Part shown: piece by piece, positions 39,001-45,000 of the stretch
How positions within the stretch are numbered: position 1 is the first letter of the stretch
How the letters are laid out: every line of letters starts with the position of its first letter
Made by a program: the position numbers
NCBI GenBank assembly: GCA_030690305.1
Contig: JAUYHB010000013.1
Location: 5,221 to 69,220, forward strand
Source of the DNA: a bacterium
GTDB lineage: Bacteria > Patescibacteriota > Minisyncoccia > Phycocordibacterales > JAGLPS01
Reading direction: 5' to 3'
DNA length: 64,000 nt

Positions 39001-42000
39001 AAATGCCCAAAATCCTCATTGGAGAAACAGGTTTTTCTGTCATGAACTAAAAAACAGTATAAATAAACGGGGCTATGGCGGTTCCTCCTCCAAATACAAG
39101 AATTGCTCCAACGACAACAAGTACAATTATGGCGGGCAGAAGCCAGAACTTTTTTCGTGTTTTTAAAAACCCCCAAATGTCTTTCAAAAAATCCATATAA
39201 TTGATTAATGCATATTAATAAATTGTTTCAATATCTTGTTTTGTAAACATATGTCCCCTATCTGAAAAAGAAGTTGCGGCAGTACGCCAGGTAGAAATAA
39301 GTAATGTGTCCCCCTTCAGGACTCTCCGAATCGTTCCTATGGGGAAAATAATGACAAAAAATACGGCTGCAAAAAATATCTTCGGTACTATAAGGCCTAG
39401 TATCTCGACAAGCTTGAGCCATACCCACGCAAACGGGTAAAACACTTTCGGGACAAGAATGACAAGAACAAGAAGAACTATAGCCGCAGAAAAGAACCTT
39501 TCGTCGTATTTAAAGCCAAGAATCAAGGAAAAAAGTACCGTGATAAGGCCAGTGTCTGCAATCCATTTTTCTGTCATATAGAAAGACTATAACACAAAGG
39601 TTTATAGTAATCACTGTAAAATCTTTGGTCAGACAATCCTTACATCCGGAACGGCAATGATGAATTTAACACCTTTTTTACGCAAGTCCCTTTCTTTTTC
39701 CAAAATCGCATCCGCGTAATTCCAAGACAGTAAAAGCATATAATCAGGGGTTTCGTTTTTCAAAATATCGGGCGAAGCTACCGGAATACGCATCCCCGGA
39801 GTAAACGTGCCTTGTTTGGCAGGAGTCGTATCGGTAATACAATCAAGAATATCCGGACCAATTTGGAAATAATTAAGCAGGGTATTGCCTTTGGCGGGTG
39901 CTCCGTATCCAAAAATCTTCTTTCCCGCTTTTTTCAGGTCAATCAGGATTTTAAGAAGTTTATTTTTGTTTGATTTGATTTTGCTTGAAAAATTCAAATA
40001 TGTTTCCTTTTTGACCAGACCCATTTTAATTTCACGATTTAAAAAATCATGCACCGCTTCAGAGATCTCCCCGGACTTTCCAACATATACCCGCATAGAC
40101 TCACCGTGGATCGGTACCAGTTTTATGTCGTTAATAGTCATGCCCAGTGAATTAATCAGGTGTTTTAAAGAATGTAGCGAGTGATAATAGATATGTTCGT
40201 GATAAATTTGGTCAAATCCGCCTTGATTTATGAGATTGCCAACCCAATGAACTTCGAAAATAAATCGGCCATTCGGAGAAAGAAGCCCTTTGACTGCGGA
40301 AAAAACGCCTCGGATATCTTCTATATGGGCCATGACGTTGTTGGCAATGACAACTTGAGCTTCGCCCAATTCAGCTTTTATTTCCTTGGATACTTTTCCT
40401 GTGAAAAAATCGACTTTTGTCGGTACATTATTTTTTATTGCAATCTTTGCTATGTTTTGGGCCGGGTCAACCCCCAAAACTCTACACCTATCTTTAATTC
40501 GCGAGAGAAGACTCCCGTCATTGCTGCCAATTTCTACAACCAGGTTACTCGGGGACTGTATGTAATCTTTTACTATTTCATCCGCGAGAGAATTAAAATG
40601 CTTAACTAACGGATCGTTTGCGGAAGTTTCGTAGTGGTAGTTTTTGTAAAGCAATTCACTGTTAACTACATGGCTTAGTTGGACAGAAAAACAGTCATTA
40701 CAAAAATTAATCGCGAGTGGAAAAAACATTTCAGGAGAGCGTAAATGCTCCTTGTGTACAAAAGCGTTTGCAAGCGGCATCAGTCCCAAATCAAGAACTG
40801 TGTCTAAATTTTTTGAGCCACAAATACCACATTTTGATTTTTGATGAAAGTTTTTCCATTCCGTTTCCAAATATTCTTTCAAAGCATCTTGCCAGGGGCG
40901 CATTAGTTTATGCCCAGACACCATAGCCTCATTTTTTACCCTGTATGCGCCAGGAAAATGGTCAAGCCCGACGGGAATGAGTTTCACATTCGGTTTTAAT
41001 GTTTCAATAATAAACTTGGCGACCTCATATCGAGAGCATGCCCCAACGTTTGAGAGATGAAAAATACCCACTGCATTTTCTTTCAATAACCGCTTTAAAG
41101 CTTCCACCAAATCTTTGCCGAAAGTCGGCGAACCGTATGCGTCATCAACCGCCTTGATTTCTTCCTTATCAAGCTGTTTGATTATTTTGCTTACAAATTT
41201 CTTGTCTTGTCTCAATCCCCCGCCAAACATCCAGCAAGCCCTGGCTATTATATAATCATCCAACATTGCCCGCACAATCAGTTCTCCTTGATGCTTTGAT
41301 TTGCCGTAAAAATTTTTAGGATTCGGCATATCCGTCTCCGCATACGGACCATTCTTCTCACCGTCAAAGACTCCCGCAGTAGAGATATATATAAGTTTCG
41401 CCCCCACATCCTTTGCGGCAATCGTAATATTATAGGTACCGACACTGTTGACTTTGTACGCATGGCGCGGGTCGCGGTCGCACAAGTCGACATCCGTTTC
41501 CGCGGCAAGATGGATAATCGCCTGAGGACGGTGGTGTCTTATTACTTTCATCACATGGTCTAGGTCAGTAATATCCAAAGACTCACGGTCCGTTTTAATC
41601 CCAAAATCAATGTAGGATCCGACCATACCCGAAGCCCCGGTAATCAAAACTTTGTTTAAATCTATTTTTCGGGACATATTTTGTTGTCGGGTTATTTCTT
41701 TCTCTTACTTATAAGAAGAGAAGATTCAAGCAATGAATCTATGGTGCCCGCATCATACCACCCGCCCTTTACTATGGAAAAATCAACGATTCCTGAACGT
41801 ATGTACTGGTTTATAGAATCGGTCATTTCCAACTCTCCTCTCCGTGAAGGAGTTTGCTTCTGAATAAATGAAAAAACTTGATTGTCCATAATCCAGAAAC
41901 CGGTCTGGGCATAGGCTGATTTTGGCTTTTTTGGTTTCTCTTCTATTTTCAGTATCCGTTTCCCGCTCTTATCAAATACCGGCACTCCGTACCGCTTTGG

Positions 42001-45000
42001 ATCCTTCACTTTTTTAAAAAAAATCCGCACACCACTTTTGAATGTCTGTACAGATTTGGTAAAATCATCTTCAAAAATATTATCCCCCAAAATAACAGCA
42101 ATGTTGTTTTTGTCCGCAAAATCTTCCGCGTATGAAAGCGCGTCGGCTATGCCTGCATTGTTTTTATCCTGCACGGCGTAGGAAAGTTTGACTCCATATT
42201 CTTTTCCCGAGCCTAAGAAATTTATAAAGTGTCCCGCATGTTCGCGCCCGCAGACAAGAAGGATTTCAAGAATTCCCGCTTTCCGCAGTGTTTCAATAGG
42301 ATACATGATCATCGGTTTGTCATACACCGGCAACAAGTGCTTGTTTGTGACGAGAGTCAGTGGAAGAAGACGCGTACCAAGACCCCCCGCTAATATGATT
42401 CCTTTCATATAAATTTATTTTTTCTTATGGACGTTGTGAGCGCGCCACAAATCTATATGGGGGTTAAAAACTCCTGTTCTTTTTCTAACGTGATCAATCC
42501 ATTTTGGATTATTGATATACCACTCCAGGGTTTCTTTAAAGGCTTTTTCAAAAGAATATTTTTGCTTCCATCCAAGTTCTTTCATAATCTTTGTCGGGTC
42601 AACGGAATATCGACGATCATGGCCCGGCCGGTCTCCCACATATTCTATCCATGATTCGTCGCGTTTAAAATGTTTCAAGATTCGTCGGGCAATGTCGGTG
42701 TTGTCGAGTTCGTTGTCCGCACCGATATGATACACTCCACCGGGTTTACCCTTAAGAAGACACAGCTCAAGGGCACTGCAGTGATCAAGAACGTAAACCC
42801 AGTCTCTTACGTGTTTTCCATCACCATAGAGGGGCAATTTCTTGCCTTCCAACATGCGCAACACGAAAAAAGGAATGAGTTTTTCGGGATATTGGTAGGG
42901 ACCGTAGTTGTTCGAACAGTGGGTAACAACAACAGGAACTTTCCACGTGGAAAAATAAGCACGACACAGAAGATCTCCTCCCGCCTTTGTTGCCGCATAG
43001 GGCACGTTGGGAGCAAAAAGTGTGTATTCATGGAAACGTTTTTTGGAGTCAAGAGGCAAACTGCCATGAACTTCATCTGTTGAAACCTGGACATATTTTA
43101 CAACTGACGGGTGGGCCTTCACCGCTTCGGCAATATTAAAAACTCCTTCAATATTTGTCTTAATGAATTCAAGAGATGCACCGTGGATACTTCGGTCAAC
43201 GTGGGTTTCAGCGGCAAAGTTTATAACGTAATCGGGCTTATATTTTTTAAATACCCGATCAACCGTTTTCTTATTGACAATATCACCTTTTACGAAGCGG
43301 TAACGAAGTTTGGGATTCTCGGCTACATCCTTATTGTTGTCGCGATTTCCCGAATAGGTTAATTTATCAAGATTTATGATCCTGGTTTTAGGGTGTCTCG
43401 AAAAGATGTAGCGTATAAAATTAGAGCCTATAAAACCGGCTCCGCCACATACGAGAAGTGTCTTATTGTTGAATGTGAGTAATTTTGCCATATTTTCTTT
43501 CTAAACCTCTCCTTGTTTGCAAAAAAGATGCTTTTGCGCGAAAGTAGGTAACGCTTATTCTTACATAAAATGGCTAAAGGTCAAGGTTTTTGGGTGTTAA
43601 GAAGTTTTTATGTCTATTTTCTTTCTATGTTTTCCCAAAACCCAGCCGAGCCAGAAAGAAAGGATGAACCAGAAGATTTTGAGACCCCACTTTGCAAGCT
43701 GGTGCCACTTAGCGGTAAGTTGTGACTTTCCTATCCGCTCACTGAAAGAAATCGGAATCTCTATGAATTTTATCTTTTTGCTTACAACAAGAAGCAGGAG
43801 CTCTGTCGCGAAAAGGGCGTTGGTTGTACGCCAATAAGGGGCAAGAGAGAGTAATACTTCCTTCTCAAAGAGTTTGCATGTGCAGCCTATTTCAGTAAGA
43901 GAGTTAGTACCAAAAAAGACTTCGATTACTTTTGCCTCAAAGACATTGGCGAGCTTACGTATTAGACCCATTGAGGCTCCGTCCAGAATTGCGCTTCGAT
44001 TTGTGCGTGTCCCCATAACTACAGGGAAATCGTGTGAATATACGAGGAATTTTTCAAGGTCCGCCGCAGAATATGTTCCGTCAGGCTCTGATAAAAATAT
44101 ATAATCTCCAGTTGCCTCTTTAATACCTCGTTGGTAACCGTGCCCATATCCTTGTTTATTTTCATAGACAAGGCGTGCTTTTGTTTTCTTCACTTCTTCA
44201 TCTGTACCCGGCTCCGCATTGTTATTTACCACTACCACTTCATCAACAAAACCTGTAGCAAAATAATCATCAATCATTCTGCGGATTGACCCCTTTTCCC
44301 TATATGTAGAGAAAACAACTGAAACTTTTTTGCCTTGCCACATATGTTTATGTATCTAAGTTAACTCATTGTTAGAGCCGCATACCCCCATACCATAACA
44401 CGGTCGACTTTACAGAAGAAGGTTGGAATCACGAGCTAACCCGCTTCCGCATAAAACGATTTTTTAGCCAAAAAGTCAATATTTTAAAAATAATTTTAAT
44501 GCCGTGCCTGTATTTTATCTTTTTTCCTTCTCCCGTACTGCGCGGTATATACGATACCGGGATTTCAAGAATGCGATATCCTTCTTCAAGCAACCGGACT
44601 AAAAAAAGCATTTCGGATTCAAACCCACCCGCGTCGAAATAGCCGAAGGTTGATTTTGGAAATAACTTATACCCCATCAGGGTGTCCGTAAGAGTGGTGC
44701 TGTATAGAAAATTAATGAGCTTTGTGATGAACACGGAGCCGAAACGAGGTAAAAATTGACTCTTATGGTCCCGTGCGCCACGAAGTTCTCGGGAACCCAT
44801 AACGGCGATCTTTGTGTTTTGGGAAACATTTTTCAACGCGGAAAGCAATAAAGGTATCTCTTCGGGTTTGCACTCAAGGTCGGCATCCTGAATAATGGCA
44901 TAATCCCCGGTTGACACGTCAATTCCCGTCTTAACCGCGTTTCCTTTTCCGCCATTTTTTGAGAGATTTATTATTTTTATGCGTGAAGAAAAACTTTCCA

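Follow-up and report, generated by a model that had tools for sequence, protein, structure and literature searches.

A fused RmlD-type reductase and sugar C-methyltransferase in a probable surface-glycan locus of a Patescibacteria bacterium

The stretch of DNA analysed here, which we will refer to as the window, is 64,000 nucleotides (nt) long and covers positions 5,221 to 69,220 of contig JAUYHB010000013.1 (assembly GCA_030690305.1) of a bacterium of the Patescibacteria group. On its reverse strand lies a gene in which an RmlD-type 4-ketoreductase and a complete sugar C-methyltransferase (C-MT) are joined in a single open reading frame (ORF), preceded by genes for RmlB and RmlA. A sequence-only reading of the window had singled out this 682-residue ORF and the two genes directly upstream of it on the same strand, and had suggested a C-methylated, 4-reduced 6-deoxyhexose as the product. 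The joining of the reductase to a full C-MT is borne out by the ORF call and the Pfam domain profiles, and the placing of rmlB and rmlA by both Pfam and NCBIfam. As far as domains can tell, the suggested product is also supported by the enzymes present and by the window having no RmlC. The features of the locus are collected in Table 1.

Table 1. The fused gene, its domains and the neighbouring genes, in coordinates of the window (aa, amino acids; SDR, short-chain dehydrogenase/reductase; SAM, S-adenosylmethionine; MT, methyltransferase; GT, glycosyltransferase).
Feature	Coordinates	Strand	Basis
Fused gene rmlD::C-MT, 682 aa	39629..41677	(-)	ORF; Pfam and NCBIfam domains
RmlD-type SDR 4-ketoreductase domain, N-terminal, aa 9-271	40865..41653	(-)	PF04321 1e-61
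Linker and fusion junction, aa 272-282, TEWKNFHQKSK	40832..40864	(-)	DNA alignments, frame translations
C-MT Zn-binding domain, aa 283-344 (C283, C286, C326, C329)	40646..40831	(-)	PF08421 2.4e-21
Class I SAM-binding MT core, aa 376-514	40136..40552	(-)	PF13489 3.5e-13
C-MT C-terminal domain, aa 522-677	39647..40114	(-)	PF08484 2.5e-53
Short-form RmlA-like glucose-1-phosphate nucleotidylyltransferase, 238 aa	41692..42408	(-)	PF00483 1e-55
RmlB, dTDP-glucose 4,6-dehydratase, 358 aa	42415..43491	(-)	TIGR01181 434 bits, above cut-off 365
Small GT2, polyprenyl-phosphate hexose transferase-like, 248 aa	43597..44343	(-)	PF00535
Small GT2, ArnC/DPMS/GtrB-like polyprenyl-phosphate glycosyltransferase, 241 aa	44429..45154	(-)	PDB matches
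FkbM-family methyltransferase, 241 aa	45151..45876	(-)	PF05050 2.8e-21; TIGR01444 84 bits, above cut-off
GT4 glycosyltransferase, 373 aa	45878..46999	(-)	PF00534 1.2e-33
PMT_2-type GT-C membrane glycosyltransferase, 456 aa	46996..48366	(-)	PF13231 28.9 bits, above cut-off 26.1
GtrA-family small membrane protein, putative polyprenyl-phosphate-sugar flippase, 146 aa	48378..48818	(-)	PF04138 1.6e-18
Membrane ORF, 120 aa, comparable in size and position to SxtJ	39215..39577	(-)	No Pfam/NCBIfam match
DUF5989 membrane mini-protein, 49 aa	39047..39196	(-)	94% identical to PF19451-annotated ORF of locus L009
NodU/CmcH-type O-carbamoyltransferase, 627 aa	37160..39043	(-)	PF02543 7e-96, PF16861 4e-76
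Conserved ORF of unknown family, 405 aa	36010..37227	(-)	No Pfam/NCBIfam match

Judged by its profile matches, the N-terminal half is an RmlD-type SDR, and not an RmlD equivalog by the cut-off of that family. The RmlD_sub_bind profile of Pfam is covered from position 2 to 283 of 287 with 209 bits (cut-off 27), and the score of 219.3 bits on the rmlD equivalog model of NCBIfam, TIGR01214, is borderline, about 5 bits short of the cut-off of 224.05. The Rossmann GxxGxxG motif reads GASGMVG (aa 14-20), the triad S99, Y124 and K128 is present, and the solved structures that best match aa 9-271 are RmlD proteins, 3sc6 (2e-46) followed by 5u9c and 1vl0. The C-terminal half, by its architecture and residues, is a member of the TylC3/TcaB9/NovU family of C-methyltransferases. 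Its three domains score above the gathering cut-offs of PF08421 (Methyltransf_13, positions 1-62 of 62), PF13489 (Methyltransf_23, 22-160 of 164) and PF08484 (Methyltransf_14, 1-160 of 160), and two motifs that had been picked out by eye, CGICGS...CNDC and the SAM loop VVEIGSNDGS, were both found. The counterparts looked for in this half were the residues that we take to form the active site of TcaB9 (H181, Y222, E224 and H225); the SAM core carries the EIGSNDG loop, H451 and a Y492-H493-E494-H495 motif. In the PDB, aa 281-681 align over their full length with MtmC (4rv9, 2e-79), KijD1 (5t64) and TcaB9 (3ndi), and none of the PDB sequence matches holds both halves in one solved chain.

Read from the alignments, the catalytic residues are intact in both halves. 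Rossmann G20, S99, Y124 and K128 of the SDR domain are invariant in 16 of 16 fused proteins, as are, in the C-MT domain, the four Zn cysteines, the N386-D387-G388 SAM loop, H451 and Y492-H493-E494-H495. The C-MT residues are also invariant or more than 90% conserved in a wider set of 42 sequences (the four Zn cysteines in all 42), and the glycine motif and triad of the SDR are kept in fused proteins down to 31% identity. The earlier concern that the C-terminal domain might lack SAM-binding residues thus falls away: they are present and invariant. An AlphaFold2 model renders both domains with confidence (mean predicted local distance difference test, pLDDT, of 92), with a local minimum of 76 in the block of the linker, residues 271-280. 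This dip and a predicted template modelling score (pTM) of 0.67 suggest that a fixed interface between the domains is not established by the model. At NCBI the identical protein (GCA_034375565.1) appears only as 'sugar nucleotide-binding protein [Patescibacteria group bacterium]'.

The lack of an RmlC epimerase, first noticed by inspection of the window, was confirmed in several ways. No RmlC domain (PF00908, dTDP_sugar_isom) was detected by Pfam in the ORFs of at least 150 aa or in the small ORFs of the gaps, a tblastn search of the window with a genuine RmlC-type domain (that of homologue P0128; P and L numbers denote proteins and loci in what follows) gave nothing better than E=0.4, and no intergenic gap in the window is large enough for an RmlC gene. 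Nor was an RmlC-like gene found within 8-10 kb of the rmlD/C-MT pair in the Patescibacteria loci L001-L014 and L019. The picture is different in L095, the locus of the fused protein P0012, where two RmlC-like (PF00908) genes lie within 8 kb, at 1795-2313 and 12135-12689; an epimerase-free picture is therefore not valid for every fused lineage. L095 also holds a heptose-type gene set (GHMP kinase, SIS, HAD) and NeuB/CMP-sugar genes.

We consider it likely that the product of the fused gene is truly bifunctional and works in a cell-surface glycan pathway of this Patescibacteria (Paceibacteria-type) bacterium, in which C-methylation is followed by 4-reduction and no epimerase takes part. RmlA and RmlB would, by family assignment, supply dTDP-4-keto-6-deoxy-D-glucose. 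The C-terminal TylC3/TcaB9/MtmC-type domain would then deprotonate the carbon alpha to the 4-keto group and add a methyl group from SAM, most likely at C-3 by analogy, since all the solved relatives are 3-C-methyltransferases, and the N-terminal RmlD-type domain would reduce the 4-keto group with NAD(P)H. Members of this C-methyltransferase family depend on the 4-keto group, which acidifies the C-H beside it, as established for TylC3 and TcaB9; C-methylation would have to come before 4-reduction because it needs the ketone. No RmlC-type epimerase would be involved in reaching the product, a dTDP-6-deoxy-C-methylhexose of the type of virenose or evalose. The substrate of the reductase would presumably be the C-methylated 4-ketosugar rather than dTDP-4-keto-L-rhamnose, and the score below the equivalog cut-off likewise suggests a substrate other than the canonical one. 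Judging from the conserved gene neighbourhood, a small GT2 probably moves the product to polyprenyl phosphate, GtrA may flip the polyprenyl-linked sugar, the PMT_2 GT-C enzyme may transfer it outside the membrane, and in the clade of the window the sugar or the glycan is probably O-carbamoylated as well.

The fusion may further serve to hand the labile methylated 4-ketosugar from one active site to the other, a channelling hypothesis already voiced in the sequence-only reading. Taken together, the more elaborate proposal would be that this clade makes an epimerase-free, methyl-branched and O-carbamoylated surface 6-deoxyhexose (3-C-methyl, like virenose or evalose, or 5-C-methyl, like noviose) through a polyprenyl-phosphate/GtrA/GT-C route, with a self-contained two-step fusion that hands over the intermediate; we put this forward tentatively, as a possibility with the balance somewhat against it. 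If it holds, the RmlD-type domain would be the first of its family shown to accept a C-methylated substrate in the making of a surface glycan, and the branched sugar would serve as a lineage marker among uncultured candidate-phyla bacteria. The surface chemistry of these uncultured organisms is essentially unknown, which lends interest to a conserved Patescibacteria operon that has no local RmlC-type epimerase. Such a compact single protein, which would take dTDP-4-keto-6-deoxyglucose to a branched 6-deoxysugar, could be reconstituted alongside RmlA and RmlB and could also find a use in glyco-engineering.

Several points weigh against the epimerase-free proposal. The RmlD domain falls just under the equivalog cut-off (219.3 vs 224.05), and characterised RmlD_sub_bind reductases act mostly on L-configured sugars, a preference that fits a D-series route without epimerase awkwardly. 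The placing of the methyl group at C-3 and not at C-5 rests on analogy. RmlA is short and scores below the rmlA cut-offs (233 bits on TIGR01207, cut-off 361), so that dTDP as the nucleotide is a family-based assignment. The polyprenyl-phosphate/GT-C route is read from the neighbourhood: GtrA (PF04138) and PMT_2 (PF13231) pass their cut-offs, the GT2 matches fall short of those of NCBIfam, and the tie of these genes to the C-methyl sugar is by inference. The search for RmlC covers the 64-kb window, and an epimerase could be encoded elsewhere in the genome; and one fused lineage, as described above for L095, does carry two RmlC-like genes within 8 kb.

These points lead to the alternative that survives best, although we regard it as unlikely: a noviose-type or L-series pathway. 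Here the methyl group would be added at C-5 to give a gem-dimethyl carbon, which abolishes the C-5 stereocentre and with it the need for 5-epimerisation, or else an RmlC-type epimerase encoded elsewhere would act first; the RmlD-like domain would reduce an L-type or 5-C-methyl 4-ketosugar, and the carbamoyltransferase would act as NovN does on noviose. In the biosynthesis of noviose, the genes for NovU, NovS and NovN lie downstream of RmlA/RmlB homologues, and NovU methylates C-5 after epimerisation by NovW. Compared by description, the novobiocin system resembles the window in that both have a C-MT of one family, along with a 4-ketoreductase of RmlD-like type and a carbamoyltransferase of the CmcH/NodU type. 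The reductase is nearly at the RmlD cut-off, and NovS and other L-sugar 4-reductases are RmlD-like; the clade of the window keeps a NodU/CmcH-family carbamoyltransferase directly downstream, an FkbM methyltransferase is in the operon, RmlC-like genes occur near the fusion in L095, and a fusion of RmlC with a C-MT (P0128) exists. The noviose genes, however, are separate genes in Streptomyces that serve an aminocoumarin acceptor, and no homologue of RmlC or NovW was found in the 64 kb or in the loci of the close relatives. The solved C-MT relatives are 3-C-methyltransferases without exception, and the carbamoyltransferase is absent near the fused P0004, P0006 and P0008 and is thus no fixed companion of the fusion.

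For the epimerase-free route itself there are several known systems to compare. The C-terminal 400 aa of the fused protein align end to end with TylC3, TcaB9 and KijD1 (E 1e-71 to 4e-75) and share their three-part architecture, Zn cysteines, SAM loop and His/Tyr-x-Glu-His residues. Those enzymes, in contrast, are stand-alone proteins of ~415 aa from actinomycete antibiotic clusters and act on 2,6-dideoxy or 3-amino-2,3,6-trideoxy 4-ketosugars; the C-MT of the window is fused to a reductase in a surface-glycan locus, and its likely substrate retains the 2-OH, since no genes for 2-deoxygenation are present. The nearest functional analogue is MtmC of mithramycin biosynthesis (PDB 4rv9), in which 4-ketoreduction and 3-C-methylation also reside in one polypeptide. 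In MtmC, however, one domain swaps NADPH and SAM, and the separate MtmTIII reduces the methylated product, whereas in the window two dedicated domains are fused, the RmlD-type SDR being placed to reduce what the C-MT has methylated. With RmlD (TIGR01214; 3sc6, 1vl0, 1kbz) the N-terminal domain shares the full profile, the Ser/Thr-Tyr-Lys triad and the Rossmann motif; it differs in its sub-cut-off score, in having no RmlC in the locus and in being coupled to a C-MT.

The order of steps proposed for the fusion has precedents. In the pathway to TDP-D-mycarose, C-methylation is followed by a separate 4-ketoreductase and no epimerase is involved (PMC10269268). For virenose (6-deoxy-3-C-methylgulose) in the lipopolysaccharide of Coxiella burnetii, a dTDP route through RmlA, RmlB, a TylC3-like 3-C-methyltransferase and a 4-ketoreductase has been proposed in silico; no dedicated 4-ketoreductase was identified in Coxiella, and a GDP route to virenose was favoured (PMC3539893). 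In the window these four activities would likewise act one after the other in that order on a sugar of a surface glycan, with the difference that the 4-ketoreductase is physically attached to the C-MT. Fusions within the rhamnose pathway have been surveyed and include RmlC-RmlD, RmlA-RmlC and the plant RHM proteins, which, as in the window, join consecutive or neighbouring enzymes of 6-deoxyhexose synthesis; an RmlD-methyltransferase fusion is not in that survey (bioRxiv 10.1101/854612). Targeted literature searches found no description of an RmlD-C-MT fusion or of C-MTs in Patescibacteria, in agreement with the sequence-only reading, which had not recognised the fusion as a described enzyme. 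It is worth pointing out that both enzyme families and the reaction logic are textbook deoxysugar chemistry, and no new mechanism is opened. What is new is an uncharacterised and under-annotated RmlD::C-MT protein, a modest variant of known biochemistry.

A junction of this kind can also arise from a sequencing or assembly error, and the earlier reading had asked for the junction to be examined, placing it at 40.75-40.8 kb. The single frame across the junction stands; its place has to be corrected slightly upstream, to 40832-40864 (aa 272-282). On the artefact explanation the organism would have two overlapping genes, merged by one spurious extra A in the run GGAAAAAC. The difference from the split relatives is indeed exactly one base, in or beside a run of five A in the window, the closest unfused homologue (P0011, 79%) is as similar as the fused P0003, and locus L093, from the metagenome-assembled genome (MAG) GCA_034375565.1, is 100% identical to the window across 4 kb and may come from the same sample, in which case it is not independent. 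The fused frame, however, recurs well beyond the window. Ten further full-length fused proteins (P0002-P0010 and P0012; 665-710 aa, 49-88% identity) were drawn from ENA, JGI, NCBI and Logan assemblies of different samples, and the identical protein is called on 4 contigs, one of them from the NCBI MAG. In P0002 (SRR22388054, L010) and P0003 (SRR22388013, L009) the same frame is read through local sequence that has no A-run, and the eight more divergent fused proteins have different linkers. Because the local junction sequences of the three fused genes differ from one another (AAAAACTTT, GGGAATTTT and AAACAAAGT), a repeated homopolymer error is not credible.

The split reading would, moreover, leave the C-MT of the window non-functional. 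The relic ATG frame ends after 21 codons and no other start keeps the first Cys pair, so that the C-MT can be produced only as part of the fusion. A HMMER search, exhaustive over 1.84 billion cluster representatives, added distant RmlD-C-MT fusions down to ~31% identity (P0121, P0131, P0135, P0151, P0155 and P0221); orthologous fusions, which had been suggested as a check, therefore exist both as the ten at 49-88% identity and as these more distant ones. The fusion is genuine, one uninterrupted frame that is reproduced across assemblies and relatives. For the lineage of the window, the suspicion of two separate genes or of a sequencing artefact fails on the recurrence of the fused frame in independent assemblies. 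With the junction DNA compared with three split and two other fused relatives, and with the fusion recurring in different contexts and distant lineages, we dropped the artefact explanation as highly improbable.

The same comparison shows how closely the fused and split states are related. The closest unfused relatives, P0011 (79%), P0013 (76%) and P0019 (68%; identities in the C-MT part), share an operon of two GT2 genes, rmlB, rmlA, rmlD, C-MT, a 120-aa ORF, DUF5989, a carbamoyltransferase and an ORF of ~390 aa. In the split loci L005, L007 and L011, rmlD, called at 263-282 aa, and the 409-aa C-MT gene overlap by 25 nt: in three-frame translation the GAA TGG (Glu-Trp) codons shortly before the rmlD terminus contain the start ATG of the C-MT, and the TAA of rmlD follows 25 nt on. 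The relic of this ancestral ATG is found in the window at 40857-40859, inside GAA TGG (40856-40861), and the A-run at 40851-40855 is one base longer than in the split relatives. An extra base just after the embedded ATG aligns the rmlD and C-MT frames in the window, in L010 (P0002) and in L009 (P0003), and this single-base column is the only indel that separates the three fused from the three split genes over the 2-kb gene pair. The Glu-Trp pair near the RmlD C-terminus is retained in nearly all the fused proteins too; in the more distant fusions the linkers are different and longer. Judged from these alignments, a single base has merged two overlapping neighbours into one gene, an event that is easy and recurrent.

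A quick neighbour-joining tree was built from 261 C-MT domains. Fused and stand-alone proteins are interspersed in it, and parsimony asks for at least 13 changes of state; this being a distance tree without support values, the count of 13 is approximate. Within the clade of the window the same tree gives the order P0003 (fused), P0013 (split), P0011 (split), then P0002 and P0001 (fused). The two states thus seem to interconvert easily, and their function is probably alike beyond the fixed 1:1 stoichiometry and the proximity that fusion brings. The rarity of the fusion is easily overstated, as the closest relatives are split with a 25-nt overlap, the one-base toggle has been thrown at least 13 times on that approximate count, and other fusions of the C-MT family are common. 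Among these are RmlC-C-MT (P0128), SDR-C-MT (P0132, P0143 and P0152) and C-MT-GT2-MT (P0161), as well as a fusion in the reverse order, with the C-MT N-terminal and an SDR of the 'Epimerase' type C-terminal (763 aa, L017:1736-4027, identical to P0125), from an uncultured Gammaproteobacteria MAG. With a recurrent toggle, a very large and promiscuously fusing family and a surface-glycan locus, the significance of the fusion is below what the sequence-only reading suggested. It nevertheless offers a clean natural case of overlapping, translationally coupled genes passing into fusion proteins, and back, through single-base indels, which bears on annotation pipelines.

Some further observations on the fused and split forms can be added. 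The same two activities are joined in both orientations, as a comparison of L017/P0125 with the window shows. P0135 (943 aa) has ~250 extra N-terminal residues, which match no Pfam family, ahead of RmlD-C-MT, and P0246 (1162 aa) has RmlD-like and C-MT regions inside a larger protein. In L005 (4027-6080) the C-MT is 76% identical to that of the window and the adjacent rmlD just 46%; the corresponding values are 79% and 78% in L011 and 68% and 72% in L007. The mismatch in L005 hints that recombination had a breakpoint where the two genes meet. A scan of GTDB genomes returned no single-ORF RmlD::C-MT in named or cultured organisms among the top 80 matches listed. Seemingly full-length matches there (Gemmata algarum, Planctomycetes, Chloroflexota) proved to consist of neighbouring genes or of ORFs extended too far and were set aside.

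Turning to the neighbourhood, the sequence-only reading had associated sugar C-methyltransferases with antibiotic deoxysugar pathways such as those of mycarose and noviose. That association was overstated: the C-MT family comprises 54,336 representative clusters at E <=1e-3, spread across most phyla, and its neighbours here are those of a surface-glycan locus. Of the two small GT2 genes, the one nearer to rmlB has as its best NCBIfam matches AglJ and dolichyl-phosphate hexose transferase, both below cut-off. The other matches ArnC (9hwj, 2e-16), DPMS (5mlz, 8e-16) and GtrB (5ekp, 5e-14) in the PDB, and AglJ, ArnC and PpgS in NCBIfam, all below cut-off. GtrA, PMT_2 and GT2 neighbours also stand beside the operon in L001 and L007. 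With polyprenyl-phosphate GT2s, GtrA, a PMT_2 GT-C enzyme and GT4s as neighbours, the gene content argues for a locus that makes a cell-surface glycan and not an antibiotic. The RmlA-like gene is kept beside the rmlD/C-MT pair in L001, L005, L007, L010, L011, L093, L094 and L095; in L094 (6976-8031) an RGP-family gene (PF03214, reversibly glycosylated polypeptide / arabinose-mutase type) lies between rmlA and the gene of the fused P0008.

An antibiotic or secondary-metabolite pathway of the mycarose or noviose type would, it is true, agree with the history of the family, which was first characterised in antibiotic clusters and whose best PDB matches here (MtmC, KijD1 and TcaB9) come from them, and TylF- and CmcI-type methyltransferases do occur elsewhere in the window. 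But the 64 kb hold no polyketide synthase, nonribosomal peptide synthetase or aglycone genes, the 2,3-dehydratase and 3-ketoreductase needed for 2-deoxygenation are absent from the window, and the surroundings are made up of GT2, GT4, GT11, PMT_2, GtrA, Wzy_C and an ABC exporter. The host belongs to a small-genome Patescibacteria lineage, and C-MTs of this family occur widely, in many phyla, where surface glycans are encoded; we find an antibiotic pathway scarcely credible here.

Equally hard to credit is a non-catalytic role for the RmlD-like domain, as a regulatory or scaffolding NADP-binding module like MAT2B, the RmlD-like subunit of methionine adenosyltransferase, with another SDR of the island performing the 4-reduction: MAT2B chains are significant in the PDB search (~2e-20) and several other SDR genes are in the window, but real RmlD structures match far better (2e-46), stand-alone rmlD is always the immediate upstream neighbour of the C-MT in the split relatives, and the Gly motif and S99/Y124/K128 do not vary in any of the fused proteins, even at 31% identity, so this regulatory reading was rejected on the conserved catalytic residues.

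Downstream of the fused gene, a module of four genes (window 36010-39577, reverse strand) is conserved in L005, L007, L009, L010 and L093. An ORF of 120 or 121 aa and the carbamoyltransferase are kept in the same places in all five of these loci, and ORFs of 387-389 aa occupy the position of the 405-aa ORF in L007, L009 and L010. The 405-aa ORF contains 'GGDSLTW', possibly block I of an SGNH hydrolase. By the sizes and composition of its genes the module resembles sxtJ/sxtK/sxtI/sxtL of the saxitoxin clusters, in which SxtJ and SxtK are unexplained partners of a carbamoyltransferase (PMC2679770). The presence of the module suggests O-carbamoylation of the sugar or glycan in the immediate clade of the window; near the more distant fused genes of P0004, P0006 and P0008 the carbamoyltransferase module is absent.

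A second, dense sugar-modification island occupies positions 14148-34644 of the window. It holds two GDP-mannose 4,6-dehydratases, a GDP-fucose-synthase-like SDR, three DegT-type aminotransferases, TylF- and CmcI-type O-methyltransferases, two GT11 fucosyltransferase-like genes, an asparagine synthase homologue, a hexapeptide acyltransferase, an ABC exporter and a Wzy_C/TPR protein. The first ORF of the island (410 aa, 14148..15380, forward strand) overlaps the end of the Wzy_C/TPR gene (11985..14363, reverse strand) by ~215 nt; its TTG start is probably over-extended, because the GDP-mannose dehydratase domain starts at aa 65. At 59400-62313 of the window, on the reverse strand, a surface protein with lamin-tail (LTD) and PKD domains adjoins a VirD4/TraG/TrwB-like coupling ATPase; in L001, too, the glycan locus has an LTD/PKD protein at its side.

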